This document shows, piece after piece, positions 13,241-53,249 of a DNA stretch of 64,000 nucleotides; position 1 is the first letter of the stretch; every line of letters starts with the position of its first letter. This DNA is from Thermoanaerobaculia bacterium. GTDB taxonomy: Bacteria; Acidobacteriota; Thermoanaerobaculia; Multivoradales; Multivoraceae. The stretch is taken from the NCBI GenBank assembly GCA_963664405.1, contig OY761158.1, positions 1,632,001 through 1,696,000 on the forward strand, written 5' to 3'. A program made the translations under genes and the position numbers. The notes beneath the pieces are model-generated. The model ran no database searches. It was not told the origin of the DNA and saw only the letters and a program-made list of their open reading frames with translations.

Positions 13241-14334
13241 CGGCCGTGCCTCTTGTACCACTGCTCCTCCAACATTCGCGCCCCGAGCAGGGTACCTCGC
13301 ATCGAGTAGTTGCCCTCGTGGCAGGCAACTTCGTAGATGAGATCGTCGCTCCGCGGCATCGGTAGCGAACCGCCGTAGGGGGCGGCATAGTCGTGGTCGT
13401 CGATCCTGAACTCGTAGAACAGGGTGCCGGCGTCCTGCCGCGTGAAGCGCTCGACGACGTGGAGCCCCTCGTGGGGCGTGTCCCAAGAGCGAAGGAAATT
13501 AGTGGTGTCGACCACCAGGGTGTCGCCCTCCCACCATCCGATCGAGTCGCCCGAAAAGGAACGGACTCGAGGAGGCGCATGCTCGACGGGGCGCCCCTCC
13601 GAGTCGAGGCGGATAACGCGAGCCCAGTGCATCTGCTCGACCTGGATGACGACGTGATTCTCGGTTTGGATGATCTTCTGGAAGTTGTTGTAGGGCGCTG
13701 GCAGCATAGGCACGGTGCGCGATCCAGCGTAGATACAGCGCGTGCCTAGGCCTAGCATCTCGGGATGGTCGAAGATCCGATGGTCCCCAAAGGTGTAGGT
13801 CAGGGCCTTACCGTCGGGGCCGATAACGCCCTCCGCGAGCCACCAGGCACTGTCGGGATCCGAGGGCCCATTGTAGTCGTTGAAGGCGAAAGGGAGCCGA
13901 TGCTTCCTCCCCTGTGCGCTCAAAGACGGCATGCGACCGTCCGCTGGCTCGGTGAGGATCGAGTTGCGGTACTTCCCGTCGACGCTAAAGGCCGTTTCGC
14001 CCCCGTCGATAAATACCTTCCAGCCACCTCCGACGTTCTGAAACTCGTTCTTACCTCCTTTGACCGGCGCAACGCGATTCGGATCGCTGTCGGAGAGCCA
14101 GAACCTCCTCCATTCCGCCAGGGCCTCCTCGATCTCCCTCGCACCTTCGGCGCTCATGTGGGGATCGTTGCCGTACTTTGCACTACGTGTGATGGGCGTC
14201 CGTGTCTTGATGTCGTAGGTTCCCGACAGATCCGGCTTGCCGCTCAGCATGCGCGGAAGGTCGTCCTCGGCACCCAGAAGCGGGGCACACGGGAGGCCAA
14301 GAAGTACAACAACCGCCAGGAATTTCGTCATCAT
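13237..14334 (-). CDS. Uncharacterised secreted 'ACHEGN-family' protein, copy 2
   Basis: Signal peptide, GKPDLSG, TRC, GDSIGWWEGDTLVVDTTNF, YEVACHEGNYSM. Confidence 0.88.
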   Translation of the reverse strand: MMTKFLAVVVLLGLPCAPLLGAEDDLPRMLSGKPDLSGTYDIKTRTPITRSAKYGNDPHMSAEGAREIEEALAEWRRFWLSDSDPNRVAPVKGGKNEFQNVGGGWKVFIDGGETAFSVDGKYRNSILTEPADGRMPSLSAQGRKHRLPFAFNDYNGPSDPDSAWWLAEGVIGPDGKALTYTFGDHRIFDHPEMLGLGTRCIYAGSRTVPMLPAPYNNFQKIIQTENHVVIQVEQMHWARVIRLDSEGRPVEHAPPRVRSFSGDSIGWWEGDTLVVDTTNFLRSWDTPHEGLHVVERFTRQDAGTLFYEFRIDDHDYAAPYGGSLPMPRSDDLIYEVACHEGNYSMRGTLLGARMLEEQWYKRHGR

Positions 14335-21045: not shown

Positions 21046-22152
21046 CTAGCGGTTCGCTTCAAACCACTCCTGCTCCGCCAACCGCGCCCCGCGCAGCATG
21101 TTGCCCATCGAGTAGTTGCCCTCGTGGCAGGCGTACTCGTAGAGCTTGCTGTCGGTCCGCGGCCAGGGGAGTGAGCCGCTGTAGGGCGCGGTGTAGTCGG
21201 GATCTTCGACGGTGAACTCGTAGAAGAGGCCGTCGTCGGTGGCAGTGAAGCGCTCCACGACGTGCAGGCCCTCGTGGGGCGTCCCCGGTTCGCGCAGGGA
21301 GCTCTGATCACGCCGCGCGCGACCGCGGTCACTCGCCACCGGAGCCTCGCCCTGGCGGCGGAAGTTGGTGGTGTCGACCATCAGAGTGTCGCCCTCCCAC
21401 CAGCCGATCGAGTCTCCGCTGAAGGAGTGAATCTCCGCCGGCAGATGCTCGGGGGTACGCCCCTCAGCGCCGAGACGAATGATGCGAGGCCAGTGGAACC
21501 ACTCGACGAGGATCACCACGTGCGTATCGGTCTGGGTGATGGTCTTGACGTTGTTGTAGCCGCCGGTCTGGCGCACCGGCACCGTCGCCGCGGTGTTGTA
21601 GATGCAGCGCATACCCAGGTTCTGAACCTCGGGATGATCGTAGAGATCCTCACCGGTCTCCAGCCACCAGGCCCCCCCGGGGTTGTGGTTGTAGCGCCGC
21701 TGCACTCCCTGGCGCCACTGCTTGCCCGTTTCGGTGAGCGGCGGAAGCCGGCCATCGGAAGGGTCGGTGAGGATCGAGGTGCGGAACTCTCCGTCGACGG
21801 CAAAGGTCGTGGTGACCCTGTCGAACCAAATGAACTGGTTGTAGCCGCCCACGTTGCCACGCACTCCGGTACCCCCGGCCGGCGGAAGCTCGCGGTTCGA
21901 ATTGATCGTCACATCTGCCGGTAGGACCCTCCTGGCGGCAGCCTCCTCGACCTCCTTCGCCTCCTCGGAGCTCATATACATCCTGGTGCCGTGCTTGGCA
22001 TCGCGCTGGAAGGGAGTAAGAAAGCGGAGCTCGTAGTTGCCCGACAGGTCCGGCTTGCCGCTCGGCGTCCTCGGGATGTCTCTTGGGGCAGCGAAGGCCG
22101 CAGCATCCACCAAAGCGACGGCGACGACGAAGAGGATGGCTCTCGATCTCAT
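21046..22152 (-). CDS. Uncharacterised secreted 'ACHEGN-family' protein, copy 3
   Basis: Signal peptide, GKPDLSG, GGYNQFIW, MRC, GDSIGWWEGDTL, YEYACHEGNYSM. Confidence 0.88.
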   Translation of the reverse strand: MRSRAILFVVAVALVDAAAFAAPRDIPRTPSGKPDLSGNYELRFLTPFQRDAKHGTRMYMSSEEAKEVEEAAARRVLPADVTINSNRELPPAGGTGVRGNVGGYNQFIWFDRVTTTFAVDGEFRTSILTDPSDGRLPPLTETGKQWRQGVQRRYNHNPGGAWWLETGEDLYDHPEVQNLGMRCIYNTAATVPVRQTGGYNNVKTITQTDTHVVILVEWFHWPRIIRLGAEGRTPEHLPAEIHSFSGDSIGWWEGDTLMVDTTNFRRQGEAPVASDRGRARRDQSSLREPGTPHEGLHVVERFTATDDGLFYEFTVEDPDYTAPYSGSLPWPRTDSKLYEYACHEGNYSMGNMLRGARLAEQEWFEANR

Positions 22153-25179: not shown

Positions 25180-26277
25180 TCAATCGCGGCTCGATCCGGC
25201 CTTCCCCAGCACATCCGCTTCGAGCACCCGGGCGCCCCGTAAAATGCCTCCCATCGAGTAGTTGCCCTCGTGACAGGCGTACTCGTAAACCCGCTCCGTG
25301 GTAGAGCGCAAAACGTACTCGCCGGTCCACGGCGCGGTCCAAGACGTCTGGTCTTCGACCGTGAAGCGGTAGAGCACATCGCCGTCCTCGAGCTTGGTGA
25401 AGCGCTCGACGACGAGCATGTTCTCTGAGCCTCCTCGCAGGACGGCGTCGGGATGGAAGCCGACGCTGTCGACCACCAGCGTGTCGCCGTCCCACCAGCC
25501 GATCGAATCGCCGGTCCACTTCTTGATGTCGGCCACCGGTAGATGCTCGGAATTCATCCGCACGATACGAGCGTCGTGGACCATCTCGATCAGGATCATC
25601 ACCGCTTCGTCGGTCTGCACGATGGTCTTGTAATTGTTGTAGCCGCTCGGCAGCGTCGGAGTCGCCCCGGTGAACCCGACGATGCAACGATCTTGCGCGC
25701 GAAGCGACTCCGGACCGTCGAAGGGGCCGGCCTCGTCGCTATCGAGCCACCATGCACTGCCGTCGTTGCCACCGCGCTGGCGCTCGATATTGGCTTCGTA
25801 CGCCGCCGCACGCTTGGCCGCGACCTCGGTCATCGGAGGGAAGCGACCGTTCGGCGGATCGACCAGGATCGAAGTGCGGAACTTTCCGTCCACCGCGAAG
25901 GCCTCACTTCCCGGGTCGAGCCAGAAACGGTTGTAGCCGCCCACGTTGCCGGCACCACCGCCCGATCCATCGCCACCCTCGGGCGGTGGCTCACGATTCG
26001 GGTCGCTGCTCCGAGAACTCTCTTCGACCCGCGCCGCCACCTGGGCTTCGATCTCGCCTGCCTCCTGTCGGGAGAGATAGAGCTTGTCGCCGTATCTCTC
26101 CGGACGTTGGAGCGGCGTCACCGTGGCGGCGTTGTAGTTACCCGACAAGTCGGGTCGGCCGCCAGCGGTGCGCGGAACTCCGTCGCCCTCAGCCGCGAAG
26201 CCGGGGTCGGCCGAAATGAGCAGAACGAGGACCGATAGGAGTGCCGCGAATCTCATCATGCATCGTCTCCCGATCAT
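25180..26277 (-). CDS. Uncharacterised secreted 'ACHEGN-family' protein, copy 4
   Basis: Signal peptide, GRPDLSG, GGYNRFW, DRC, GDSIGWWDGDTLVV, YEYACHEGNYSM. Confidence 0.88.
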   Translation of the reverse strand: MIGRRCMMRFAALLSVLVLLISADPGFAAEGDGVPRTAGGRPDLSGNYNAATVTPLQRPERYGDKLYLSRQEAGEIEAQVAARVEESSRSSDPNREPPPEGGDGSGGGAGNVGGYNRFWLDPGSEAFAVDGKFRTSILVDPPNGRFPPMTEVAAKRAAAYEANIERQRGGNDGSAWWLDSDEAGPFDGPESLRAQDRCIVGFTGATPTLPSGYNNYKTIVQTDEAVMILIEMVHDARIVRMNSEHLPVADIKKWTGDSIGWWDGDTLVVDSVGFHPDAVLRGGSENMLVVERFTKLEDGDVLYRFTVEDQTSWTAPWTGEYVLRSTTERVYEYACHEGNYSMGGILRGARVLEADVLGKAGSSRD

Positions 26278-27107: not shown

Positions 27108-27140
27108 TTGCAATTAGGGACTTGTGCGCCATAATTGCAA
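27108..27140. promoter_or_regulatory. Inverted-repeat operator candidate upstream of AAA/DUF4143 gene 1
   Basis: TTGCAATTA-N15-TAATTGCAA, AT-rich, ending 2 bp before the ATG. Confidence 0.55.
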
Positions 27141-27142
27141 GG

Positions 27143-28327
27143 ATGATTCCGCGTCGATTGACAGATCTTCTCGTAGAAAGGCTGCGAGACTTCCCAGCCG
27201 TCGGTCTCCTCGGCCCACGGCAGGTCGGTAAGACCACACTCGCTCGACTCTTGACTGTGGAACAGACCGCGAAGAAGACCGCGTATCTCGATCTCGAGAA
27301 TCCGGTCGATCTGGAAAAGCTGGAGGACACTGCAGGCTATCTCGAGTTTCGATCCGATCGACTCGTGATCTTCGATGAGGTACAGCGAATGCCCGGCCTC
27401 TTCGAGAGACTGCGGGGTGTTATCGACGAGCGAACGTTCGATGGCCAACCCGCCGGCCACTTTCTTCTGCTTGGATCAGCCTCGATCGACCTCTTGAGGC
27501 AATCATCGGAGAGTCTCGCGGGGCGGATTGCCTACCTCGAACTGGGGCCGCTCGACATCACCGAGATCGACTCGGACGACGAGGCTGACCTCTGGATCAG
27601 GGGAGGATTCCCCAGAAGTCTGCTGGCTGCATCCGACCGCGCCAGCGCCACCTGGCGGGAAAGCTTCATCACCACCTATCTGGAACGCGACATTCCCCAA
27701 CTCGGACCGCGGATACCCGCCGAGACACTGCGGCGATTCTGGACCATGCTCGCTCACCGCCAGGGAGCGCCACTCAACGCTGCCGAGCTTGCCCGTAGCC
27801 TGGCGGTGGACGGCAAGACCATAGCGCGGTATCTCGACCTCATGGTGGACCTTCTTCTCGTCCGCAAGCTACAACCTCTGCATGCCAACGTGGGCAAGCG
27901 GCTGGTAAGGTCTCCCAAGACCTATCTTCGCGATAGCGGCCTGGTACACACACTCCTCCGCCTGGACACGTTCGAGGAAGTCGTAGGGCATCCGATTGCC
28001 GGCGCGAGCTGGGAGGGACACGTAATAGAGAACCTGCTCCGCGTTGCGCCTTCGCGCACCGAGGCGAGCTTCTACCGCACATCGGCGGGAGCAGAGGTCG
28101 ACCTCGTGCTCGACCTTCCGGGTTCTCGACGCTGGGCGGTCGAGGTGAAGCGCGGCCGGGCACCCAGCGTCTCGCGCGGCTTCCACAACGCCCTCGAGGA
28201 CCTCCAGCCGGATAGAGCCTTCGTCGTCCATTCAGGTGCCGATCGTTACCCCAAAGGCGAGAACATCGAGGCCATTGGCCTAGGCGACATGGCGAAAGAG
28301 ATCGTCGCCACCTTCGAGAGCCGATAG
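27143..28327 (+). CDS. AAA+ ATPase (AAA_14) with DUF4143 domain
   Basis: GPRQVGKTT Walker A, IFDEVQR Walker B, LLGSAS, ESLAGR, RGGFP, SPKTYLRDSG, EVD...AVEVK. Confidence 0.92.
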   Translation: MIPRRLTDLLVERLRDFPAVGLLGPRQVGKTTLARLLTVEQTAKKTAYLDLENPVDLEKLEDTAGYLEFRSDRLVIFDEVQRMPGLFERLRGVIDERTFDGQPAGHFLLLGSASIDLLRQSSESLAGRIAYLELGPLDITEIDSDDEADLWIRGGFPRSLLAASDRASATWRESFITTYLERDIPQLGPRIPAETLRRFWTMLAHRQGAPLNAAELARSLAVDGKTIARYLDLMVDLLLVRKLQPLHANVGKRLVRSPKTYLRDSGLVHTLLRLDTFEEVVGHPIAGASWEGHVIENLLRVAPSRTEASFYRTSAGAEVDLVLDLPGSRRWAVEVKRGRAPSVSRGFHNALEDLQPDRAFVVHSGADRYPKGENIEAIGLGDMAKEIVATFESR

Positions 28328-28408
28328 GACTCGCCGAGGACAGCGAAGCGTGCGACCCCGACCGCGCGACTCGGCGCACCATCGACCATCATCTTCGAAT
28401 CTACTCAA

Positions 28409-28439
28409 TGAAAAATGGGAATGACATTCCCGATTTTCA
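28409..28439. promoter_or_regulatory. Inverted-repeat operator candidate upstream of AAA/DUF4143 gene 2
   Basis: TGAAAAATGGGAATG-A-CATTCCCGATTTTCA imperfect palindrome 15 bp before the ATG. Confidence 0.5.
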
Positions 28440-28454
28440 GCTATAGTCTCACCC

Positions 28455-29603
28455 ATGATCCGGCGGACCCTTCACAAGCGGTCTATTGAGGAGCGCCTCC
28501 GACGAAGTCCAGTGGTGGGCCTCCTCGGCGCTCGCCAAGTCGGGAAAACGACGCTCGCACGGGAGATCCTCGGTGGCCGCAAGAAGGTGCATTGGTTCGA
28601 CCTCGAGCTCCCAGCCGACCGGGCTCTCCTCGCGGACGCTCAACTGGCATTGCAGGATCTCAGAGGCCTGGTAGTTCTCGACGAGATTCAGCACCGGCCG
28701 GAGATATTTCCGTTGCTGCGAAGCCTGGTCGATCGCCGGCCTCTGCCCGCTCGCTTCCTACTCCTTGGTAGCGCTTCACCATCGCTTCTCCGACAATCCT
28801 CGGAGAGCCTAGCCGGAAGGATCTCGTACTACACGCTTCCGGGGTTGGCCGTCGAGGAGGTAGGAGTCAGCGAGCTGGACAGACTTTGGCTGCGTGGCGG
28901 CTTCCCTCGCTCCTTTCTCGCAAATAGCCACCTGGCCAGCAACCAATGGCGTCGAGACTTCATCAGAACTTTCGTCGAGAGGGACCTGGCGCAGCTTGGA
29001 ATCGAGATTCGGTCGAGCGTCGCTCATCGATTCTGGGCGATGCTAGCCCACTACCACGCACAGACCTGGAACGGTTCAGAGCTGGCACGGGCTTTCGGAG
29101 TGACCCACAAGACGACTCGACGTTACCTCGATGCCCTGACGGCGGCGCTGGTCATCACTCAGCTCAGGCCCTGGTTCGCCAACATCGGAAAGCGTCAGGT
29201 CAAGGCCCCGAAGGTCTACATAACGGACTCTGGACTCTTACACAGTCTGCTCGACATCAATGACCGGCGAGGGCTCGAGCGGCATCCGAAGGTGGGCGCC
29301 TCCTGGGAGGGATTCCTTCTCAAGGAGACGATTCAAGCTCTGCGAGCCGAGGATGAAGAATGCTACTTCTGGGCTACGCACACCGGAGCAGAGCTCGACC
29401 TCCTCTGGGTGCGGGGCCGGAAACGCTGGGGTTTCGAGTTCAAACGAACTGTTACTCCGCGCCTGACCCGGTCGATGCATGCCGCGATGGAGTCACTCGA
29501 TTTGCAGCGTCTCTTTGTCGTCCATGCCGGCTCGGAAACCTTTCCCATGCACAAGAAGGTCACAGCGATCGCAGCATCGAGGCTACTAGACGACCTGCCA
29601 TAG
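28455..29603 (+). CDS. AAA+ ATPase (AAA_14) with DUF4143 domain
   Basis: GARQVGKTT, VLDEIQH, ESLAGR, RGGFP, APKVYITDSG, ELD...GFEFK. Confidence 0.92.
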   Translation: MIRRTLHKRSIEERLRRSPVVGLLGARQVGKTTLAREILGGRKKVHWFDLELPADRALLADAQLALQDLRGLVVLDEIQHRPEIFPLLRSLVDRRPLPARFLLLGSASPSLLRQSSESLAGRISYYTLPGLAVEEVGVSELDRLWLRGGFPRSFLANSHLASNQWRRDFIRTFVERDLAQLGIEIRSSVAHRFWAMLAHYHAQTWNGSELARAFGVTHKTTRRYLDALTAALVITQLRPWFANIGKRQVKAPKVYITDSGLLHSLLDINDRRGLERHPKVGASWEGFLLKETIQALRAEDEECYFWATHTGAELDLLWVRGRKRWGFEFKRTVTPRLTRSMHAAMESLDLQRLFVVHAGSETFPMHKKVTAIAASRLLDDLP

Positions 29604-33335: not shown

Positions 33336-33572
33336 ATGTCGCGCTTGACCATCACGTTGCCGGACGAGCTTCATCGCGCCCTCAAAGAAGCGGCGGCTAG
33401 CCGCCGTCGCACGATCGGCGAGTTGGTCGCGGAGAGCCTCGAACGCTACGGGATCAAGTCAGCCGAATCTGGGCGAGAGCTGGTGGCCCGAGCCCGGTCC
33501 CATAGCCGCCTGGAAGAGAAAGAAGCGCTCGGGATCGCGATCTCCGAGACGCGGCTCAGCCGCTCCCCGTGA
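33336..33572 (+). CDS. CopG/RHH antitoxin
   Basis: MSRLTITLPDELHRALKEAAA; GTGA overlap with the PIN gene. Confidence 0.8.
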   Translation: MSRLTITLPDELHRALKEAAASRRRTIGELVAESLERYGIKSAESGRELVARARSHSRLEEKEALGIAISETRLSRSP

Positions 33573-33994
33573 GGCCACCCTGGGCAGTGGTCGATACCAA
33601 CGTCGTCATTTCCGGCCTGCTCACCGGCGCTCGGGCCTCCCCGACTCCACGCATTCTCGACGCGATGCTGGCCGGAACCCTGAGTTTTCTCCTATCGGTG
33701 CCCCTGCTCTCGGAGTACGGGACAGTGATGCTACGACCTCGCGTCGCAGCTCTCCACGGTCTCGACGAAAGAGCGATCGATCACATTCTGGAGGCCCTCG
33801 CTCGAAATGGCGCTCTCCGCCAGCCGCTCTCGATTCCTCCAGTGCCGGGTGACGCCGGCGACCAGCACCTCTGGGAGCTTCTCGCTCGCGAGCCTGGCGC
33901 CGTGCTGGTGACTGGCGATCAGGGTCTCCTGTCTTCTCCCCCACACTGGGCATCGGTCTCGACACCGGCAGCCTGGATCGAGAGGTCGCCGTGA
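33569..33994 (+). CDS. PIN-family putative toxin
   Basis: VVDTNVVISGLL, DAGDQHL, LVTGD. Confidence 0.85.
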   Translation: MRPPWAVVDTNVVISGLLTGARASPTPRILDAMLAGTLSFLLSVPLLSEYGTVMLRPRVAALHGLDERAIDHILEALARNGALRQPLSIPPVPGDAGDQHLWELLAREPGAVLVTGDQGLLSSPPHWASVSTPAAWIERSP

Positions 33995-34059
33995 GCCGAG
34001 ACCCCGCTCATCTGGAGCTCGACATTGATCGGGTCATCTATATGATCTAGTATAAAACC

Positions 34060-34308
34060 ATGATTCGGATCAACATCGCCGAGGCGAAAACCCACCTGTC
34101 GCACTATCTCGAGAGTGTCGAGAAGGGCGAGGTCGTTGTGCTTTGTCGGCGCAACATCCCAATCGCCGAGATCCGACCGATCCCACAGCCACCCTCGCAG
34201 CCCAGGCCGGTTGGAATCGACCGCGGAATGACCCTTCCTCCCAGCTTCTTTGAGCCTCTACCCACGGATCTACTGGATGCGTTCGAGGGCGGTGAGGCGT
34301 CCGAGTGA
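34060..34308 (+). CDS. Phd/YefM family antitoxin
   Basis: INIAEAKTHLSHYLESVEKGEVVVLCRRNIPIAEI. Confidence 0.88.
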   Translation: MIRINIAEAKTHLSHYLESVEKGEVVVLCRRNIPIAEIRPIPQPPSQPRPVGIDRGMTLPPSFFEPLPTDLLDAFEGGEASE

Positions 34309-34691
34309 AGCTCCTGGTAGATACCTGTACCTTCCTCTGGCTCGCCATGGACGATCCGCAACTGTCGGAGGCGGCGCGAGCTGCCTGCCGAGATACAGGC
34401 AACGAAGCGTACCTGAGCGCACTATCCGCCTGGGAGATCGCGATCAAGAACCGCTTGGGTCGGCTGCCCCTGCCGGAAGCGCCTCCTCACTACGTCGCCA
34501 GCCGACGCGAGTGGCTCCAGCTCGAGCCCCTCGCCTTCGACGAAAGCTGCGCCGCGCACGACGCGCTCCTGCCTTCTCTCCACCGCGACCCGTTCGACCG
34601 AGGCTTGGTCTCGCAGGCCATCTTGAATGGCATGACGATCGTCACGCCGGATCCGGCGATCGCTCGTTACCCGGCGCCGACCCTCTGGTGA
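34305..34691 (+). CDS. vapC: VapC PIN toxin
   Basis: LLVDTCTFLW, SAWEIAIK, HRDPFDR, VTPD. Confidence 0.9.
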   Translation: MKLLVDTCTFLWLAMDDPQLSEAARAACRDTGNEAYLSALSAWEIAIKNRLGRLPLPEAPPHYVASRREWLQLEPLAFDESCAAHDALLPSLHRDPFDRGLVSQAILNGMTIVTPDPAIARYPAPTLW

Positions 34692-35118
34692 CGCTGGCTT
34701 CTTCCTCCTCGGCCGAAGACAGAGTCGCCAACCTCCGCTGCGCCTCCCGTAGATCGTCCTCCAACCAGTCGCAAGAAGGTCAGCGTCGATCGTAGGCGCC
34801 AAGAGACGCCTTCTTGGATCCGTAGTGGTTATAGAGGGTGACGACGTCGCCTCTAGCCGATTGCACATCGCAATGTGCCTGACAGCGCGGATGTCGCAAA
34901 CCCCAGTTGAAATCGTTCACGGTCTGTGTATAATCGTACCCTCACTATCAGAGCGCCTATTTGCTCGGCCAGGTTGGAGTTATTCCTTCGGGATGAAGTC
35001 CCACGCCGCTGAGAGATCGAATTTTTCGAATCCGAATTCCACCCCACACTCCTGAGCTACGACTCGCTACAATTTCTTGAACCCGACATTCAATTTTCCG
35101 TTTCGCAGCGTAAGAAAA

Positions 35119-35165
35119 ACCCTGTATATAGTATGTCTAGGTTTCATGGACACAACATATAGTCT
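35119..35165. promoter_or_regulatory. Tandem NrdR-box-like sites upstream of TBDR3
   Basis: ACCCTGTATATAGTAT (35119) and ACACAACATATAGTCT (35150); 31-bp spacing; NrdR consensus acaCwAtATaTwGtgt. Confidence 0.7.
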
Positions 35166-35270
35166 GGCACGGTTTTCGCAGGGTGTCTGAACGTAAGCAG
35201 CAATAGGCCGAGTCCGGCCTTCCGGCAACTTGATCCGAACCGGGAACAATGATTCTGGAGGACAGCTATC

Positions 35271-37964
35271 ATGAACGCAATCGCACGTAACTCATTTATC
35301 TGGATCTGTGCAATCGCTCTTTGCGCGTTGCCGCTATCGGCCGATGGTCCGCAGACAGGAACAATCGACGGCACCGTTACCGATGCTCAGGGCGGCGGTC
35401 TACCCGGAGTCACAGTAACGCTTACCGGACCTCAGAACACGAGGACCGAAATGACCGACGCCGAGGGCGATTACCGCTTCGCCCTGCTCCAGCCCGGGGC
35501 CTACACGGTGAACGCCAACCTGGAGGGCCTGGGCTCGGCCGAGCGCGCAGTCGCCCTCGAAATGGGGCAGCGCCAAGGCGTCGCTCTTACCTTGCAGGCA
35601 GCCACCTCCGAGACCATCACGGTCACCTCCGAGGCGGCGCTGATCTCCAAGTACGACACCGGCGCCACCTCTGCGATCCCGGAGGAGGCACTCGAGAACG
35701 TCTCCTTCACCACCCGCAACTACAACACGAGTGTCCAAATGCTGCCGGGCTTGGTAACCCGCAACCAGCAGAACGCTAGCCGCCCTTCAGTTAACGGAGG
35801 CATCCGCACCGAGATCGGTGTCTTCATCGACGGCGTCGACGTCAGCATGCCCCGTCGTGGCGGCGAGCTGCGCTTTCAGATCCCGTCGACCGTAATCACC
35901 AATACCCGGATGGAAACGTCGGGTTTCGCCTCCGAGTACGGCCGCGCCACCAGCGGTGTCATGAACTCGACGATCAAGACCGGCACCAACACCTTCCACG
36001 GCGACCTTCTCTATATCGGCCAGAACCCGAAGTGGCGGTCCGAGGACTGGCTCGGGATCGAGCGTCCTGACGATCAGATCAACAGCTTCGAGGCCGGCGT
36101 CGGTGGGCCGATCTGGCGCGACAAGGCCTGGTTCTTCGCTTCCTACAACGAACTGAATGACAACCGGCTCGACCGAACGCGTTCCGGCGACACATTCGAT
36201 GTCACGCGCACATCAGAACCGCTCATCGGCAAGGTGAACTTCACGCCCGGGAGCCGCCATCAGGTCGCGGTGACGTTGATCGACTCGCCGTCCTCAGCGG
36301 TCGGCGGTGCCGGGGGAAGCGGCGACCAGTACGCCGTCATGACCTTTCCGATCAACAACAGGATCCAGACCGGGACCTGGAGCTTCGCCATGACCAACTC
36401 CGCGTTCCTCGAAACCAAGCTGGCCAACCGCGAAGAGGTGGTGGGACGCAATGCTCACCCCCCCGCCCCGATCATCCCCGGCGTGTCTTTTGACGATCCC
36501 AACGGCAACGACTTCCGCTACCAAGATCTCGACGACGCTTTGCGATATAACGGTCCCTCGATACGCCTGGGCGCTGGGTTCAACGACTTTCCGCGCGATC
36601 AGGCGAATGCCTCGGTGACCCTGTTCAAGGGAAATCACGAGCTCAAGGGCGGCGTCGACTTCCAGGACGTCACTTTCAGCAACCTGACCAGCATCGAGAC
36701 CGAGTTTCGCGGCCGTGGTTTCTGCCGAGAGTGCACCGGAGGCTTCCTCGCGCCGTCCACCAAGCGGGTCTTCGAGCTCGGCCCCCCGGTCTCGATGAAT
36801 AGCCTGATGAGTGCAGCTTATGTCCAGGACCGGATGGAGGTCGGTGACAAGCTGACCTTCAACGTGGGGCTGCGCTACGACGAACAGTGGATCGACAACG
36901 ACCTCCTCGAGCGAGTCAACGAGTACAGCGAGTGGGCGCCGCGCGCAACCGTGGTCTACGACATCAACGCCGACGGCAAGATGCTGGTGCGCGGCAGCGT
37001 GGGGCGCTACTACCACAACATCGGCCTCGGTGTCGTCTTCCAGGAGTTCACCCGCGGCAACAACGGTGAGAACATCTACGACCAGTTCCTCTTTAACTCT
37101 GCGACGGGGTTTTACGACATCTTTCAGCGCCACGTCGAGCCGGTCGCGGGTAACGCTGTCTCGAACATCGTGCCCCACTACAAAGACGAGGCGTCGTTGG
37201 GCTTCGACTGGCAGTTCGCCGACAACTGGGTCTTCACCTCGCGCCTCACCGTAAGCGAGATTGACAACATCTTCAGCGCCAGCCTTCAGTACGACGAAGC
37301 TGGCGCAGTCGTCCGCGATCTGCGCAACTGGCCCAACAACACACGTGAGCATACGGGTCTCGTGTTGGCGGCCAACCGAGCGTTTCGTAACAACTGGTCG
37401 GTGCAGGCCAACGTGAGTTTTCTCGACACCCCTGGCACCATCGAATCCGCCAACGACAATGACGATCACAATGAAGGCTTCGGTGGCTGCACACTGCCGG
37501 GAGGAGCTGGCCTTTGCAACATCACCAGCACATCCCTTTGGGACGGAGCGCTCGGGGTGGACAGGGACTACTTGATCAACCTCGTCGGCATGAAGCGTTG
37601 GGCGTTCGGCAAGCATGACGTCATGACCAGCGCTTTCTTCCACTATTCCTCCGGTGAGGCCTGGGGATTGTGGCCCAGCGACAATGTCTTTCACCCGGTG
37701 TCCGGACAGAGAATCCGTACTACGGGTCCCACCGAAGCGAGGGACGCCAATAGCCTCGAGGACTATTTCACCCTCAACTTGAATGCCACCTACCAGTTCC
37801 CGATCGGGGGTAAGTTTCAGGGCATTATCGGCGCTGAGGCCTCCAACATCACCGACGAGTCGGACCAGACCCGCGTCAACATACGGAACGGCAACCCGAA
37901 TAACACGGTCGATGCTTTCACTTTGCCGCGGGAGTTCCGCCTCAAGCTCGGTCTCCGGTTCTAA
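35271..37964 (+). CDS. TonB-dependent receptor, Oar-like (TBDR3)
   Basis: GGAGG SD, SA-DGPQTG, PRRGGELRF, IKTGTNTFHG, C-terminal LGLRF. Confidence 0.93.
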   Translation: MNAIARNSFIWICAIALCALPLSADGPQTGTIDGTVTDAQGGGLPGVTVTLTGPQNTRTEMTDAEGDYRFALLQPGAYTVNANLEGLGSAERAVALEMGQRQGVALTLQAATSETITVTSEAALISKYDTGATSAIPEEALENVSFTTRNYNTSVQMLPGLVTRNQQNASRPSVNGGIRTEIGVFIDGVDVSMPRRGGELRFQIPSTVITNTRMETSGFASEYGRATSGVMNSTIKTGTNTFHGDLLYIGQNPKWRSEDWLGIERPDDQINSFEAGVGGPIWRDKAWFFASYNELNDNRLDRTRSGDTFDVTRTSEPLIGKVNFTPGSRHQVAVTLIDSPSSAVGGAGGSGDQYAVMTFPINNRIQTGTWSFAMTNSAFLETKLANREEVVGRNAHPPAPIIPGVSFDDPNGNDFRYQDLDDALRYNGPSIRLGAGFNDFPRDQANASVTLFKGNHELKGGVDFQDVTFSNLTSIETEFRGRGFCRECTGGFLAPSTKRVFELGPPVSMNSLMSAAYVQDRMEVGDKLTFNVGLRYDEQWIDNDLLERVNEYSEWAPRATVVYDINADGKMLVRGSVGRYYHNIGLGVVFQEFTRGNNGENIYDQFLFNSATGFYDIFQRHVEPVAGNAVSNIVPHYKDEASLGFDWQFADNWVFTSRLTVSEIDNIFSASLQYDEAGAVVRDLRNWPNNTREHTGLVLAANRAFRNNWSVQANVSFLDTPGTIESANDNDDHNEGFGGCTLPGGAGLCNITSTSLWDGALGVDRDYLINLVGMKRWAFGKHDVMTSAFFHYSSGEAWGLWPSDNVFHPVSGQRIRTTGPTEARDANSLEDYFTLNLNATYQFPIGGKFQGIIGAEASNITDESDQTRVNIRNGNPNNTVDAFTLPREFRLKLGLRF

Positions 37965-38035: not shown

Positions 38036-38494
38036 ATGTTCGAGAGGAGTCGACGTTATCTCGTGGCGGCGGCTCTGATCGGCAGCGTCATCTCTTCGTC
38101 GAGTGAGAAGTCGGCTTGTGCTCGGACGAGACTGACTTAGCAGCGGCGCGTGAAGCGCCAGCTTTCGGCACGCAGCGCTTCGGTGAGGAAACCGTTGGCT
38201 GAGGATCTTTCGAGCTCCTGGCGCGTGTAGGCAAAGAGATCCCGGCAGCCTTCGGCTGCCAAGGTGCCAGCCGAACATTCTGCCCTGCATTCGGGGAGGG
38301 ATTTGCAGCCGAGCGGTCAGCCCGCAGGGCTGATCGCGAACGCCCAAGATCCCGCTGGGGCTACCTGGGTGCAGGTTTCAGCCGGGTTGATGCGAAGAAC
38401 CAGAGGAGAGAATCGGGGATCTTCTGTTGGTACACCTCCACGTTTTCTCATCCCCCTCATCTTCGGACCTCTGGACTCCGATACAATGCTCCCG

Positions 38495-38704
38495 ATGAGC
38501 GAGTTGGTATTCGAGGTGACCCAGGAGGGAGATGGGGGCTTCGTCGCTGAGTGTCTGACGGAACCGATCTTCACTCAAGCCGACAGCTGGGAAGAACTCC
38601 GGCGCAACGCCCGCGAGGCCGTGAGTGCCTTCTTCGATGAGTCGAAGTGCCCCACCTCGATCCGACTTCATCTCGTGCGCGACGAAGTGCTCGCAACTGG
38701 ATGA
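38495..38704 (+). CDS. hicB: HicB-like antitoxin
   Basis: FEVTQEGDGGFVAECLTEPIFTQADSWEELRRNAREAV; ATGA overlap with hicA. Confidence 0.75.
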   Translation: MSELVFEVTQEGDGGFVAECLTEPIFTQADSWEELRRNAREAVSAFFDESKCPTSIRLHLVRDEVLATG

Positions 38705-38940
38705 AGCTCCCGCGGGATCTCAGCGGCGAGCGTCTGATCCGAGCGCTCTGCAAGCACTGGGACTATCGCCGCGTCCACCAGGTAGGTAGCCACGTAATCT
38801 TGGAGACCGACGAGCCTTCACGCCAACGTATCGTGGTGCCCGCCCACAAGGTCCTCCGGGTGGGCACGCTGAACGCAATCCTGAGGTCCGTAGCGGCGCA
38901 CAAGGGAGACTCGCGAGACAAGATCCTCGCGACCTTCTAG
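38701..38940 (+). CDS. hicA: HicA family toxin
   Basis: MKLPRDLSG...QVGSHVIL...[16 protein letters not shown]. Confidence 0.85.
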
Positions 38941-38984
38941 AGGAACGCTGAGCACGACCAGAACTCGCGCGATCTGCTCGGAGA

Positions 38985-39140
38985 GACTGCCGCCAGACCC
39001 TCCCAATGAGCCTGCAGGAACGTCTTCCACGGCGTCCGCCGGCTCCGCTCAGGAGCCGGCTCGATCCCATGGTCTTGCAGGATCCTCTTGACCGTGTTGC
39101 GAGCGATCTTGTGACCGAGGTTAGCGAGTGCCCCACGCAC
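38985..39140 (-). pseudogene. Integrase-core/IS transposase fragment
   Basis: [37 protein letters not shown] resembles the linker preceding rve domains; no start and no catalytic domain. Confidence 0.65.
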
Positions 39141-39224
39141 TACTCGTTCCCGATCAAGGGTTCGTGGCAGGGCGTTATCGGCGCCGAGGCCTCCAACATA
39201 ACCGACGAGGGCGTTCAGACCGGT
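39138..39224 (+). pseudogene. C-terminal fragment of a fifth TBDR paralog
   Basis: [23 protein letters not shown] vs TBDR3 [23 protein letters not shown]. Confidence 0.75.
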
Positions 39225-39254
39225 ACGGCCTCGACGACTGGCCTGCGCTGCTCA

Positions 39255-39674
39255 TCAACGGTCGAGGGTACCGGGTGCTGCGACCCATTCTGTGGGCTGG
39301 CCGGTGACCTTGGCGATCCGCTCGTAATCATCGTCGTAGTGCAGCACCGTCAGGTTGGCGCTCTCCGCCGTCGCGGCGACAACAAGATCCACCGGCTTTG
39401 CTCCGCGCTGGAGGCCGGCGCCGGCCATGAGACCGGCGACATGGAGGGCGCGGTTCAAGACCTCTGGAGTGATCACTGCCTCGGGCAGCGCCAACCTCTC
39501 GCTGATGACCTCGGGAACGTCGCCAGACCGCGATCCGTACACCACCACGAGGTCGAGAAGGCGGCAGCCGAAGAGGCGTCCGACTTCGGCCAACTCCTGG
39601 AGCCGAGAACCGACAGCGCTCTGAGGCGCGCGCGCTAGAACAGAAGTGTCGACCAAGTAACTCGGCTCAGCCAT
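39255..39674 (-). CDS. vapC: VapC PIN toxin
   Basis: YLVDTSVL, VDLVVAATAE, LHYDDDYERIA..TGQPTEW. Confidence 0.88.
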   Translation of the reverse strand: MAEPSYLVDTSVLARAPQSAVGSRLQELAEVGRLFGCRLLDLVVVYGSRSGDVPEVISERLALPEAVITPEVLNRALHVAGLMAGAGLQRGAKPVDLVVAATAESANLTVLHYDDDYERIAKVTGQPTEWVAAPGTLDR

Positions 39675-39885
39675 GATCGGTCAAGCGCGGTTTACGAGCC
39701 TCCTCGATCCGATCGAGATCGAGGGAGCCCGGTCGGCGCAGACGTTCTATGTGGGCGACCGCCGTCTGACGATCGACCACGCTGCGTAACGCAATCTCGA
39801 TCGTGGCCCGAATCGTGCCCGCCCGAGTGGCACTACGAGCCCTCTCCAGCAGCTCGTCGTCGATCTCAACCAGTCGCTTCGTCAC
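39667..39885 (-). CDS. vapB: VapB antitoxin
   Basis: MTKRLVEIDDELLERA; overlaps vapC; GTATATA/TATATAC inverted repeat at 39893..39921. Confidence 0.8.
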   Translation of the reverse strand: MTKRLVEIDDELLERARSATRAGTIRATIEIALRSVVDRQTAVAHIERLRRPGSLDLDRIEEARKPRLTDHG

Positions 39886-39954: not shown

Positions 39955-40593
39955 ACCGACGTCCGCGACATCGTCAACGTAGGCGATCTCGACGCCTTCG
40001 GTCGCTTCGTGAGACTGTGTGCGGGGCGCAACGGCCAGCTCTTGAACCTCTCTTCGCTGGCCAACGACTGCGGGATTACCCACACAACCACAAGAAGGTG
40101 GCTGTCCATTCTCGAAGCGAGCTTCGTCGTCCGCCTTCTTCGCCCACACCATGCGAACTTCTCGAAGCGGCTGATCAAGAGCCCGAAGCTCTACTTTCTG
40201 GATTCCGGACTCTTGTGCTACGGCACGATGGGCCGCTACCACCACCAGGTGCACGACAAGGAAGTGTTGAAAGTCGGAATGAATGTGCACCAGATGCCCG
40301 CGGAGCAGGACACGCTGCTGCGCGATATCAGCGAAGAGAAGATCGAACCGCTGTTCGATCGAGTTAAGGAAATATCGGCTTACCGCGACAAGCGCGATCA
40401 GAAACCGTTGCTGGACTCGTTTCAGCGATTGCACGACGTCGTGCAGACCGACGAGAACATGCTTGAAGCGGTGCTCGAGTGCACGCTGGCCGGGGCAACC
40501 ATGGGTGAGATTGCCGGCATTCTCCGTCAGGCCTGGGGCACACCCTATGACCCCTACGGTCATCTCGAGTCGCCCATCGGAAGTGCGCAATGA
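39955..40593 (+). pseudogene. In-frame chimera: internal AAA/DUF4143 fragment fused to the C-terminal end of an acyl-CoA mutase large subunit
   Basis: DVRDIVNVGDL...KRLIKSPKLYFLDSGLLCY, then (from about 40220) KVGMN...ENMLEAVLECTLAGATMGEI. Confidence 0.72.
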
Positions 40594-48387: not shown

Positions 48388-48434
48388 ATACCATATGTTG
48401 TATTCGACGATCATAAGACCACGGTATATAGTAC
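48388..48434. promoter_or_regulatory. Tandem NrdR-box-like sites upstream of TBDR4
   Basis: ATACCATATGTTGTAT (48388) and CCACGGTATATAGTAC (48419); 31-bp spacing. Confidence 0.65.
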
Positions 48435-49024
48435 TCGATGCCAGCAGAGCGCCTGGTACGATTATCGCATTCATCTGAGCATAAAGGTCATTCTGACAGG
48501 CAGTCCGCTTCGAGCCGAACCCGGTCTCAAGCGAGACTGATGGTAGAAACCTCAGGAGAAAAGAAATGATGCAAGCTGCCACTCTCAGGTCAGTTCTCTG
48601 TCTCTTCGCCATCGCCTGTCTGGTTCAGGCGCCGCTCTTGGCGGACGGCCCGCAGACAGGAACCATCGACGGTACGGTGACCGATGCCCAGGGCGGCGGC
48701 CTGCCCGGCGTCACCGTCACCCTTACCGGACCTCAGAACACTAGAACGGAAATGACCGACGCCGAGGGAGACTACCGCTTCGCCCTGCTCCAGCCTGGGG
48801 CCTACGTGGTGAACGCCACTCTCGAGGGTCTTGGCACGGCCGAGCAGGCCGTCTCCCTCGAAATGGGGCAGCGCCACGACGTCGCGCTCACTCTGCAGGC
48901 AGCCACCTCCGAGACCATCACCGTCACCGCCGAGGCGGCGATGATCTCCAAGTACGACACCGGCGCCACCTCTGCGATCCCGGAGGAGGCACTCGAGAAC
49001 GTCACCTTCACCACGCGCAACTAC

Positions 49025-49102: not shown

Positions 49103-49516
49103 TGAGCGGTCACGGTTTCGTGGACACCAAGTTAAGCCCCATCGGGGCAGTTCCTATTCTGCATCAGTTCGGGTAGTCAGCTTCGGACGAGGCTGTGCGA
49201 GGTTCGGGGAGCGCAGCCTCCCTTCGGATCCGACCGCCGGTCGCGCGTGAGTTCACGCTGCCCCTTCGAAGGCCTCGGGGCTCAGGAATCCGAGCGTCGA
49301 ATGCTGGCGTCTCAGGTTGTAGAACACTTCGAGGTAAGAAACCGCTTCGTCGTGAGCTCGCTGACGAGTCTCGAAGGGTCGGTCCCAGACCTCGGTCTTG
49401 AGACTGTCGAAGAAGCTCTCCAAGACCGCATTGTCATAACAATTTCCGACGCCGGACATGCTGCAGCGAAACCGCAGCTCAGCCAGCCGATCCTGGTAAG
49501 CCTTCGAGGCGTACTG
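49103..49516 (-). mobile_element. IS3-family remnant (terminal IR plus 3' part of orfB)
   Basis: TGAGCGGTCACGGTTTCGTGGACACC end; QYAS...SMSGVGNCYDNAVLESFFDSLKTE...FYNLRRQHSTLGFLSP. Confidence 0.85.
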
Positions 49517-50968
49517 CTTGGGTTCAAGGAGTCGTCGCAGCGTTGCCTTGGTGAGCAGAGTGTACAAGCTCATCGAAGACTTCGGCAGGGGTTCTCCAGC
49601 CGAGGGTCTTGCGGGGTCGGCCGTTGAGTGCGAGCGCGACCGCGGCGAGGTCGTCGCAGGAGTATCTGACAAGGTCGGTGCCCTTCGGGAAGTACTGGCG
49701 TAGTAGTCCGTTGGTGTTCTCGTTGGTGCCCCGCTGCCAGGGGCTGTGCGGGTCGCAGAAGTAGATCGCGAGGCCGGTATCGACGCGGAGTTGAGCGTGT
49801 TGAGCCATCTCGGCGCCCTGGTCCCAGGTCAAGGACCGGCGGAGCTGCTCGGGCAGCGTGGTGATTGACACCGCGATCGCGTCACGGACGGCTTCGGCGC
49901 CGTGCCCGGCGAGGGCCGGCCCGTTCTTCACCCTCGATTCGGTCCCGTGCCCTTCCATGCGGGGCAGGTGCAGCAGCATCGTGAACCGCGTAGTGCGTTC
50001 GACGAGGGTCCCGATCGCTGAGCTCTCGAGCCCGACGATCAGGTCGCCTTCCCAGTGACCCGGCACGGCCCTGTCGCCGGCTTCGGCGGGGCGTTCGCTG
50101 ATCATGATCTCCGGAGTTACAAATTTCTTGCCTCTCCCCCGGGTTCGCGCATGCGGCACTCGTAGCGCTCGCCCGGTTCGCAGGCACGCGACGAGCTCGC
50201 GTTTGAGGGCTCCTCGACCTTGGATGTAGAGCGCTTGGTAGATCGCCTCGTGAGAGATCCGCATCGACTCATTATGGGGGAAATCAATCCGAAGCCGGTT
50301 CGAGATCTGCTCCGGACTCCAGGATTTCGCCCAACGCCGATCCTGGCGACGGCCGTGCCGACGGCCGATCCAACGCACATCCGGACCCGGCACCAGCTCC
50401 CCGTCAGGCCTTGCGATCACGCCGGCGAGGCGGTTCTGCACGTACTCACGCAAGGCATCGTTCGCGGCAAGCTTGGAGACCTTCGGACGGCTGGCGCGCC
50501 GCTCCGCGTGCCACTGCGCAGTCGTGGCCCGATAAGTTACGGCACGGCTGCGAGTCGCCGCGTTGCGGCGCAGCTCCCGCAAAATCGTCGACGGTGAACG
50601 ACCCAGGCGGCGAGCGATCTCACGTACCCCAACATGCTGAGCGTGAAGGATGGCGATCTCTTCACGCTCGGCGAACGACAGATAACGCCCCGACACCGGA
50701 GCCAACGAGATAGGTCGCATTCCACCAGCTTGCCTGAACCATCTCGACCCGACAGCCGGCGACACCCCAGCCTCTGTTGCGGCGTCCTCGCTGGACGCCC
50801 CACGAGCGATCGTCTCCCAGAACCGGATCCGGTCCTCGCGCCGCGCTGTCGAGGGCCGGCCAGGTGACCGCATCTGGCCACGCATCGCTCGAATCGCACC
50901 CTGACACTTGCCAACTCCCATCGAAACACCTCCATCACGAGATGTTGCGACGACCAGTTGAATCCGCC
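49517..50968 (-). mobile_element. Complete IS30-family element
   Basis: Imperfect IRs GGCGGATTCAACTGGTCGTCGCAAC / CTTGGGTTCAAGGAGTCGTCGCAGC enclosing the transposase. Confidence 0.9.
49524..50921 (-). CDS. IS30 family transposase
   Basis: LSFAEREEI..IARRLGRSPSTILRELRRN, GHWEGDL, TWDQGAEM, CDPHSPWQRGTNENTNGLLRQYFPKG. Confidence 0.95.
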   Translation of the reverse strand: MGVGKCQGAIRAMRGQMRSPGRPSTARREDRIRFWETIARGASSEDAATEAGVSPAVGSRWFRQAGGMRPISLAPVSGRYLSFAEREEIAILHAQHVGVREIARRLGRSPSTILRELRRNAATRSRAVTYRATTAQWHAERRASRPKVSKLAANDALREYVQNRLAGVIARPDGELVPGPDVRWIGRRHGRRQDRRWAKSWSPEQISNRLRIDFPHNESMRISHEAIYQALYIQGRGALKRELVACLRTGRALRVPHARTRGRGKKFVTPEIMISERPAEAGDRAVPGHWEGDLIVGLESSAIGTLVERTTRFTMLLHLPRMEGHGTESRVKNGPALAGHGAEAVRDAIAVSITTLPEQLRRSLTWDQGAEMAQHAQLRVDTGLAIYFCDPHSPWQRGTNENTNGLLRQYFPKGTDLVRYSCDDLAAVALALNGRPRKTLGWRTPAEVFDELVHSAHQGNAATTP

Positions 50969-53249
50969 TACAACACGAGTGTCCAAATGATGCCGGGCTT
51001 GGTAACCCGCAGGAAGCAGGACTTTGGCCGCCCTTCAGTTAACGGAGGCATCAGCACCGAGCTCGGCGTCTTCATCGACGGCGTCGACGTCAGCATGCCC
51101 CGTCGTGGCGGCGAGCTGCAATTTCAGATCCCGTCGACCGTAATCACCAATACCCGGATGGAAACGTCGGGTTTCGCCCCCGAGTACGGCCGCGCGACCA
51201 GCGGTGTCATGAACTCGACGATCAAGACCGGCACCAACACCTTCCACGGCGATTTTCTCTATATCGGCCAGAACCCGAAGTGGCGGTCCGAGGACTGGCT
51301 CGGGATCGAGCGTCCTGACGATCAGATCAACAGCTTCGAGGCCGGCCTCGGTGGGCCGATCTGGCGCGACAAGGCCTGGTTCTTCGCTTCCTACAACGAA
51401 CTGAATGACAACCGGCTCGACCGAACGCGGTCTGGCGACACATTCGATGTCACTCGCTCATCAGAACCGCTCATCGGCAAGGTGAACTTCCAGCCCGGGA
51501 GCCGCCATCAGGTCGCGGTGACGGCGATCGACTCGCCGTCCTCAGCGATCGGTGCCGGGGGAGTCGGCGACCAGTACGCCGTCATGACCTTTCCGATCAA
51601 CAACAGGATCCAGACCGGGACCTGGAGCTTCGCCATGACCAGCTCCGCGTTCCTCGAAACCAAGCTGGCCAACCGCGAACAGGTGGTGGGACGCGTTGCT
51701 GCCCCCCCCGCCCCGATCATCCCCGGCGTGTCTTTTGACGATCCCAACGGCAACGACTTCCGCTACCAAGATCTCAACGACGGTTTGCGATACAACGGTC
51801 CCTCGATACGCCTGGGCGCTGGGTTCAACGACTATCCGCGCGATCAGGCGAATGCCTCGGTGACCCTGTTCAAGGGAAATCACGAGCTCAAGGGCGGCGT
51901 CGACTTCCAGGACGTCACTTTCAACAACCTGACCAGCATCGAGACCGAGTTTCGCGGCCGTGGTTTCTGCCGAGAGTGCACCGGAGGCTTCCTCGCTCCG
52001 TCCACCAAGCGGGTCTTCGAGATCGGCCCGCCGGTCTCGATGAATAGCCTTATGAGTGCAGCTTATGTCCAGGACCGGCTGGACGTCGGTGACAAGCTGA
52101 CCTTCAACGTGGGGCTGCGCTACGACGAACAGTGGATCGACAACGACCTCAACGAGCGAGTCAACGAGTACAGCGAGTGGGCGCCGCGCGCAACCGTGGT
52201 CTACGACATCAACGCCGACGGCAGGCTGCTGGTGCGCGGCAGCTTGGGGCGCTACTACCACAACATCGGCCTCGGTGTCGTCTTCACGGAATTCACCCGC
52301 GGCAACAACGGTGAGAACATCTACGACCAGTTCCTCTTTAACTCTGCGACCGGGTTTTACGACCGCTTTCAGCGCCACGTCGAGCCGGTCGCGGGTGACG
52401 CCATCTCGGGCATCGTGCCCCACTACAAAGACGAGGCCTCGTTGGGCTTCGACTGGCAGTTCGCCGACAACTGGATCTTCACCTCGCGCTTCACCGTAAG
52501 CGAGATTGACAACATCTTCCACTCCAGCCTTCAGTACGACGAAGCTGGCGCAGTCGTCCGCGATCTGCGCAACTGGCCCAACAACACACGTGAGCATCAG
52601 GGTCTCACGATGAGGGTCAACCGAGCGTTTCGTAACAACTGGTCGATGAACGCCAACGTGAGTTTTCTCCCCACCGACGGCACCATCGATTCCATCACAG
52701 ACACTTCCGATCACAATGAAGCCATGGGTGGCTGCACGCTGCCGGGAGGAGGTGGCCTTTGCAACGTCACCAGCACATCCCTTTGGGACGGAGCGCTCGC
52801 GGTGGACAGGGATTACTTGGTCAACCTCGTCGGCATGAAGCGTTGGGTGTTCGGCAAGCATGACGTCATGACCAGTGCTTTCTTCCACTATTCCGCCGGT
52901 GAGGCCTGGGGATTGGCGCCCAGAGCGAATGTCTTTCACCCGGTGTCCGGACAGAGAGTCCGTACTACGGGTCGCCTCGAAGCGAGGGACGCCAATAGCC
53001 TCGAGGACTCCTACACCCTCAGCTTGAATGCGACCTACCAGTTCCCGATCGGGGGTAGGTTTCAGGGCATTATCGGCGCTGAGGCCTCCAACGTCACCGA
53101 CGAGTCGCACCAGGTCCGCGTCAACACACGGAACGGCAACCTGACCACTGGGCTCGATGCTTTCACTTTTCCGCGGGAGTTCCGCCTCAAGCTCGGTTTC
53201 AGGTTCTAAGCACGCCGAGACATAGATCGGTTTAGCTCAGATTCCGAGA

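Follow-up and report, generated by a model that had tools for sequence, protein, structure and literature searches.

NrdR, which has been discussed as an antibacterial target, is viewed as a repressor with one purpose, the control of ribonucleotide reductase (RNR) genes. The 64-kb stretch of DNA analysed here (the window) raises the question of whether a full NrdR operator can also stand in front of a receptor gene. The initial annotation had reported two AT-rich 16-bp sites, with starts 31 bp apart, about 105 bp before the gene for a TonB-dependent receptor (TBDR3) in otherwise GC-rich DNA, and had likened them to NrdR boxes. Sites, spacing and distance were all confirmed in the sequence at their exact positions, and the GC content around the boxes is 0.42-0.44 compared to 0.627 window-wide. 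The likeness to NrdR boxes proved to be real and strong, the two sites being partially palindromic, separated by 15 bp and carrying C4 and G13 in each box. The features of the locus are as follows.

34907..34934, plus strand: sigma-70-like promoter match TTGAAA-16-TATAAT (11/12), about 185 bp before the TBDR3 boxes
35088..35103, plus strand: box 0, ATTCAATTTTCCGTTT, a degenerate third box with 4/6 core positions
35119..35134, plus strand: middle box (box 1 of the initial annotation), ACCCTGTATATAGTAT, 5/6 core positions (G6), 16.5 bits
35135..35149, plus strand: linker of 15 bp, whose sequence differs between copies
35150..35165, plus strand: box 2, ACACAACATATAGTCT, 6/6 core positions, 22.3 bits
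35271..37964, plus strand: TBDR3, an intact TonB-dependent receptor of 897 aa, assigned from its Pfam domains

The middle box and box 2 start 31 bp apart, which leaves the 15-bp linker between them, and box 0 starts exactly 31 bp upstream of the start of the middle box. The ATG of TBDR3 lies at 35271, 105 nt downstream of the end of box 2. Within the middle box there is a -10-like TATAGT (35127-35132), for which the promoter search found no accompanying -35 element, either at TBDR3 or at the homologous locus of Candidatus Multivorans (L001). The same search found no counterpart in L001 of the near-consensus sigma-70-like match TTGAAA-16-TATAAT. No ORF was seen between this match at 34907-34934 and TBDR3.

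Scores of the box pairs and chance expectation

As described in the available parts of a 2026 mutational study (PMC13584703), the NrdR operator consists of two boxes, both of which are required, and a linker of 15-16 bp with no constraint on its sequence; linkers of 14-17 bp are tolerated, and 24-27 bp is an alternative. According to the same parts of that study, the conserved box positions are C4, A6, A8, T9, T11, and G13, of which C4 and G13 are essential, at least 63% AT is required between these two, NrdR binds heterologous boxes across phyla, and nrdR is present in 77% of bacterial genomes.

When the window was searched with the consensus ACACWATATATWGTGT allowing up to three mismatches, just these two sites were found in 64 kb, where 0.04 would be expected, and none of 100 shuffles contained two such matches. 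Two further tests, the rule based on the six conserved positions and the published regular expression, were dropped as too permissive in this DNA. In 1,627,081 bases, three pairs with at least 11/12 core positions were observed under the six-position rule, where 30 simulated runs gave 0.8 on average and at most 4, and the regular expression gave 38 matches, mostly intragenic, compared to a simulated mean of 17.6. Moreover, the regular expression rejected both pairs of the window on account of the G6 of their middle boxes. Since both tests were too permissive, a weight matrix was used instead. This matrix is symmetric and was trained on ten NrdR-bound boxes of E. coli and S. coelicolor (Table 1 of PMC13584703), a training set independent of the lineage under study.

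By matrix score, the first three ranks in the 1,627,081 bases are held by the pairs at TBDR3 (38.8 bits), at L001 (33.5 bits), and at TBDR4, an interrupted paralogue of the receptor gene in the window (28.8 bits). The training pairs, when scored with their own matrix, range from 26.3 to 38.8 bits, so that the TBDR3 pair equals the highest of them, and box 2 of TBDR3 (22.3 bits) is the top single box of the 1.63 Mb scanned. With linkers of 15-16 bp, all six pairs of at least 14 bits in the 1.63 Mb involve boxes of TBDR3, TBDR4 or L001. The best pairs in 15 simulated 1.63-Mb sets reached 14.2-21.0 bits, and the three observed pairs exceed every simulated maximum by 8-18 bits. The exact tail probability of a score of at least 38.8 bits is 1.8e-11 per position and linker at 44% GC and 7e-14 per position at 63% GC; even in the worst case, in which a 6.8-Mb genome had 44% GC throughout, only about 2e-4 such pairs would be expected. 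The boxes are thus far beyond chance.

Box register in other copies of the receptor gene

The second copy of the box pair in the window stands before TBDR4, the features of which are listed below.

48388..48403, plus strand: TBDR4 box 0, ATACCATATGTTGTAT, 6/6 core positions, 20.2 bits
48419..48434, plus strand: TBDR4 middle box, CCACGGTATATAGTAC, 5/6 core positions (G6), 8.6 bits
48566..49105, plus strand: N-terminal piece of TBDR4, 84% identical to residues 1-151 of TBDR3
50777..53209, plus strand: C-terminal piece of TBDR4, 85% identical to TBDR3

The linker between box 0 and the middle box of TBDR4 is 15 bp. The third copy, in L001 at 9855, reads CCACTACATATAGTAC, 15 bp, GCACAACATGTAGACC; it has 12/12 core positions and lies 146 bp upstream of an orthologue 86% identical to TBDR3. 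When anchored on the middle box, the boxes of all three copies fall into one register of -31, 0, and +31, in which the core positions are kept as follows.

TBDR3: box 0, 4/6; middle box, 5/6; box 2, 6/6
TBDR4: box 0, 6/6; middle box, 5/6; box 2, 1/6
L001: box 0, 4/6; middle box, 6/6; box 2, 6/6

The full-consensus partner of the middle box is therefore downstream in TBDR3 and L001 and upstream in TBDR4. The distance from the middle box to the start codon is 152 bp in TBDR3, 147 bp in TBDR4, and 146 bp in L001, and the linker is 15 bp in each. ATATAGTA is kept in the middle box of all three copies, and the sole -10-like hexamer common to them is its TATAGT. At TBDR4 this hexamer is part of a promoter-like TCGACG-17-TATAGT, the end of which is within the middle box. 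TBDR4 may also have a third box in decay, TGCCAGCAGAGCGCCT at 48439-48454, which retains 3/6 core positions; MAFFT pairs it with box 2 of TBDR3, albeit with an 11-bp gap in the linker.

Conservation in these copies follows the NrdR core. C4 and G13, 8 bp apart, are present in all six paired boxes, as is T11, and A6 is present in four of the six, the exceptions being the middle boxes of TBDR3 and TBDR4 with G6. The four boxes of the two window pairs all have C4, A8, T9, T11, and G13. Positions 5-12 of every paired box contain six or seven A or T out of eight (75-88% AT). The G6 of the middle boxes in the two window copies is a difference from nrd box pairs. According to the available parts of PMC13584703, an A6G exchange in both boxes lowers the affinity 4- to 10-fold; in TBDR3 and TBDR4, G6 affects one box per pair.

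Between TBDR3 and L001, identity amounts to 17/18 at core positions, 16/30 at the other box positions, and 10/30 in the linkers. Comparisons that include TBDR4 give a core identity of 11/18 and 10/18, low values that arise because TBDR4 retains a different pair. The coding DNA of L001 and TBDR3 is 91% identical, but BLASTN homology ends 17 bp upstream of the ATG; the boxes thus stand out as islands from surroundings that have drifted. Variation within the boxes falls on positions 1, 5, 7, 10, 15, and 16, which are among those that PMC13584703, in its available parts, gives as unconserved or freely mutable. In our best reading of the locus, the box pair is probably a genuine NrdR-type operator, maintained by selection at the receptor promoter of an Acidobacteriota (Candidatus Multivorans-like) bacterium.

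The boxes have a narrow distribution. The initial annotation had spoken of receptors in the plural, which holds for TBDR3 and TBDR4, where pairs were found, and does not hold for TBDR1 and TBDR2, whose upstream regions contain no boxes. An alignment of 28 relatives, used as query, gave 80 homologue loci, mostly from Candidatus Multivorans and other Thermoanaerobaculia, and of the 32 homologues among them whose upstream regions were inspected, only one (L001) has a pair with at least 11/12 core positions. Conservation before orthologues of TBDR3 is partial: the pair is found in L001 (33.5 bits), and it is absent from L002 and from the more distant homologues inspected. The L002 orthologue, also 86% identical, is without a segment of about 121 bp on which the -10-like hexamer and the three boxes all lie. 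This gap is clean, lying at about 9894 of L002 and corresponding to about 9794-9915 of L001, and its flanks are about 95% identical. The homologues in L003 and L004 (68% identical) have just a 9/12 pair of low AT content. Strong single boxes were seen in both, GCACCATATGTTGTCT at 3559-3574 of L003 (17.2 bits) and GTACCATATGTTGTCT at 3637-3652 of L004 (16.8 bits); they were set aside, being inside a minus-strand coding region with a partner of 5.0 bits and a linker of 25 bp.

Receptor genes, their surroundings and the B12-enzyme operon

In TBDR3, Pfam reports PF13620 CarboxypepD_reg (residues 31-109), PF25183 OMP_b-brl_4, and PF00593 TonB_dep_Rec_b-barrel (residues 414-847), all above cut-offs, and no Plug domain. 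Full-length relatives of TBDR3 occur in Acidobacteriota. TBDR4 is interrupted by inserted DNA (49105-50777) that contains an integrase-core (rve_2/rve_3) ORF on the minus strand at 49253-49672, and this receptor copy is probably inactive, though its box pair is kept. The insert also holds two small ORFs without family matches. Toxin-antitoxin modules lie on both sides of TBDR3 (33569-34308 and 38264-39885), and downstream of it are the remains of an operon for a B12-dependent mutase.

33569-33994: PIN protein, upstream of TBDR3
34060-34308: Phd/YefM antitoxin, upstream of TBDR3
38647-38940: HicA, with an upstream partner ORF, downstream of TBDR3
39255-39885, minus strand: VapB/VapC pair, downstream of TBDR3
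40009-40593, plus strand: chimeric ORF by family matches, its first 75 residues DUF4143 and the rest the final ~100 residues of methylmalonyl-CoA mutase
40219..40590, plus strand: remnant (residues 411-534) of the acyl-CoA mutase large subunit, 95% identical to L001
40590..40994, plus strand: B12-binding small subunit of the mutase, 98.5% identical to L001
40978..41979, plus strand: MeaB, the G-protein chaperone of the B12 mutase, 96% identical to L001

The two intact syntenic genomes, L001 and L002, both have the order receptor, MM_CoA_mutase (large subunit, 534 aa), B12-binding subunit (134 aa), and MeaB, with about 30 bp between receptor and mutase (32 bp in L001), and no terminator-like site was found between the two genes in L001. 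In the window, this operon has been broken by toxin-antitoxin insertions, the gap 3' of TBDR3 being occupied by the HicA-type module, a receptor remnant, and the VapBC pair; the mutase is truncated and TBDR3 is intact. By eye, a short stretch of the ORF at 39006-39638 resembles the C-terminus of the receptor. Relative to the L001 region, the window as a whole is a scrambled mosaic. A tandem pair of AAA_14/DUF4143 ATPase genes (27122-29603) was observed in the block inserted between the gene for a 358-aa protein and TBDR3.

The L001 boxes lie between two divergent genes, at a distance of 88 bp from the one for this 358-aa secreted protein. The divergent gene was considered as the true target of the boxes and is unlikely to be so: it is absent from both window copies, which keep boxes and receptor, and the receptor is therefore the constant partner.

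The initial annotation had stated that the window contains no nrd gene, and our searches agree; nrdR is likewise absent from the window, and no RNR gene was found in the window or the homologue loci. Similarly, tblastn with E. coli NrdR, NrdA, NrdB, NrdD, and NrdG gave no match in the 1.63 Mb, which are the scanned pieces rather than a whole genome.

With regard to cargo, corrinoid (B12) is favoured as a weak guess, and it is the best one because the receptor is linked to a B12 enzyme and its chaperone. Searches of PDB with the TBDR3 sequence and profile returned no receptor match at E < 0.1, BtuB included, and were uninformative as a hint to cargo. Relatives of this receptor family usually adjoin catabolic enzymes. 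No Rfam match at the gathering threshold, and hence no cobalamin riboswitch, was found in the window or in L001-L006, and a permissive Rfam search of 34600-35400 gave two chance-level matches only. The leaders fold no better than shuffles (z = +0.43 and +0.54). Given the empty Rfam search and this shuffle-like folding, a riboswitch or structured leader was rejected. The import of an RNR cofactor such as B12, as proposed in the initial annotation, is thus backed circumstantially by the mutase and MeaB operon of two sister genomes, and what speaks against it is the lack of a riboswitch and of any BtuB likeness, the catabolic neighbours usual for the receptor family, and a mutase gene that is broken in the window while TBDR3 is intact. 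Nucleotides and DNA, which the annotation also proposed as cargo, gain no support from these results.

Proposed NrdR control of the receptor and other explanations

In the available parts of PMC12051234, PMC9110341, and PMC4409342, the NrdR tetramer with ATP and dATP binds the box pair and ATP-only forms do not, the boxes overlap the -10 element or start site of nrd promoters, and NrdR is described as RNR-specific. One non-RNR target, topA of P. aeruginosa, is reported in those of PMC4409342, with a single box and activation. By sequence, spacing, and conservation, the site before TBDR3 belongs to this operator class as a predicted member. The class is usually found at the promoter of an RNR operon; at TBDR3, the gene downstream is a receptor.

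Like the operators of E. coli nrdAB, nrdHIEF, and nrdDG and of S. coelicolor nrdAB and nrdRJ, those described here have paired 16-bp boxes, a 15-bp linker, C4, A8, T9, T11, and G13, and an AT-rich centre. TBDR4 box 0 differs from box 2 of E. coli nrdDG at 3/16 positions, and TBDR3 box 2 differs from the synthetic consensus box of PMC13584703 at 3/16 positions as well. Unlike the nrd operons of these two species, however, the gene downstream is not a reductase gene but a receptor gene, followed in sister genomes by the B12-mutase operon. In the sources as available, E. coli nrdAB (boxes 0, 1, and 2) and Thermotoga maritima nrdJ likewise have three boxes in helical register, two of which are the working pair, whereas the copies here keep different pairs: TBDR3 and L001 have the middle box with box 2, and TBDR4 has box 0 with the middle box. 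P. aeruginosa topA also has an NrdR box outside nucleotide reduction, although that is a single box with activation and not a canonical double box as seen here. TBDR3 resembles receptors of the btuB type as an outer-membrane TonB-dependent receptor tied genomically to B12-dependent enzymes; in contrast to riboswitch-controlled btuB, it has no riboswitch, is 897 aa long with a CarboxypepD_reg domain, and has no detectable relation to solved receptors. In the initial annotation the receptor was not known as an established member of the NrdR regulon, and the available text of the literature searched (Rodionov and Gelfand 2005, RegPrecise, and supplements being outside its scope) yielded no report of NrdR control of such a receptor, of btuB or of the mutase.

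Building on the sequence match, phasing, conservation pattern, and synteny established here, we infer NrdR as the binder and repression as its effect, together with a promoter location and a cargo. It is reasonably probable that NrdR represses the TonB-dependent receptor. Points that weigh against this are the G6 of the two middle boxes, the mere 8.6 bits of that of TBDR4, the low core identity in comparisons with TBDR4, the absence of boxes from L002 and of good pairs from the other homologues inspected, the lack of a -35 element at TBDR3 and L001, the description of NrdR as RNR-specific, and the absence of nrdR and nrd matches from the 1.63 Mb scanned. In the simplest scenario, an NrdR tetramer loaded with ATP and dATP would bind the middle box and its partner and bend the DNA, and the bound NrdR would block RNA polymerase at the -10 element and start site of the receptor promoter. 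The TATAGT of the middle box could be that -10 element, overlapped by the box in a way that would fit nrd promoters. As dATP falls, NrdR would dissociate and allow receptor synthesis. With the ancestral operon unbroken, co-expression with the receptor would extend to the mutase, its B12-binding subunit, and MeaB. Read-through from the sigma-70-like match at 34907-34934 could contribute as well, and a bound repressor would block it. If the cell's reductase is of the B12-dependent class II, B12 import would tie the cofactor to deoxynucleotide demand. That the operator couples the dATP/ATP signal to corrinoid uptake, for such a reductase and for the co-transcribed mutase, is a tentative extension that we consider doubtful.

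Other explanations of the boxes have to be weighed against repression by NrdR. In this recombination-prone lineage, an NrdR-controlled promoter module might have been captured by rearrangement and might still bind NrdR with no adaptive link between receptor and dNTPs. We regard such a relic as unlikely: the core positions persist in all three copies, where the identity of linkers and flanks is by now close to random, and each copy retains a two-box site, in TBDR4 a different pair, which looks more like maintenance than like decay. These observations stand against a mosaic window with its insertion-sequence and toxin-antitoxin insertions, against the clean indel of about 121 bp, present with all boxes in L001 and missing from L002 between flanks about 95% identical, and against the finding that homologues of at most 68% identity are without boxes, all of which would suit a captured module. 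The operator might instead belong to another transcription factor, such as a local regulator of the receptor and mutase operon, that prefers a CTAyATATAG-like palindrome in the 31-bp register, its NrdR likeness being convergent. Here a matrix derived from two other phyla gives the pairs 29-39 bits, no less than the pairs on which it was trained (26-39 bits), every copy has a linker of exactly 15 bp, conservation falls on NrdR core positions and variation where NrdR is indifferent, and no regulator gene adjoins TBDR3, TBDR4 or the L001 orthologue. Another factor is quite unlikely on these grounds, even though it would explain a target other than an RNR gene, when NrdR is called RNR-specific, and the confinement of the boxes to a narrow clade with their loss in L002, and even though TetR genes beside other receptors of the window imply that local regulators are common here.

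It has also to be asked whether AT-rich promoter DNA with two -10-like TATAGT hexamers could have produced the boxes by chance, with no operator function. The six-position rule alone would leave room for this, since up to four pairs were simulated where three were observed per 1.63 Mb, as would the 38 matches of the published regular expression, mostly in genes; moreover, the three sites are homologous and count as one origin. Nevertheless, full-matrix scores 8-18 bits above all simulated maxima, the roughly 2e-4 pairs of at least 38.8 bits expected per 6.8-Mb genome, and conservation specific to the core positions render a chance product very improbable.

If NrdR does repress the receptor, no earlier case of a full NrdR operator on a transport gene would be known, and the NrdR regulon could extend to the import of cofactors or nutrients. 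Sensing of dNTPs would then be connected, in a way open to experiment, with uptake in a phylum that is uncultured. If the cargo is a corrinoid as well, the operator would represent a protein-based alternative to the cobalamin riboswitch for the control of a B12 receptor. Searches restricted to regions upstream of RNR genes are blind to such operators, and the published regular expression would miss the window sites owing to a single G at position 6.

Other families and sites were observed elsewhere in the window. Five paralogues of a secreted protein of about 360 aa (3-959, 13240-14331, 21067-22077, 25195-26208, and 57132-58010), all on the minus strand, are without a match in Pfam or NCBIfam, share 38-81% identity with the divergent gene of L001, and recur next to receptor and PQQ-dehydrogenase genes. 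Between a divergent TetR gene (1023-1808, minus strand) and TBDR1, an inverted repeat ACTGT-N8-ACAGT lies within ACACTGTGTAAGAATACAGTCT at 1905-1930 and is a candidate TetR operator.
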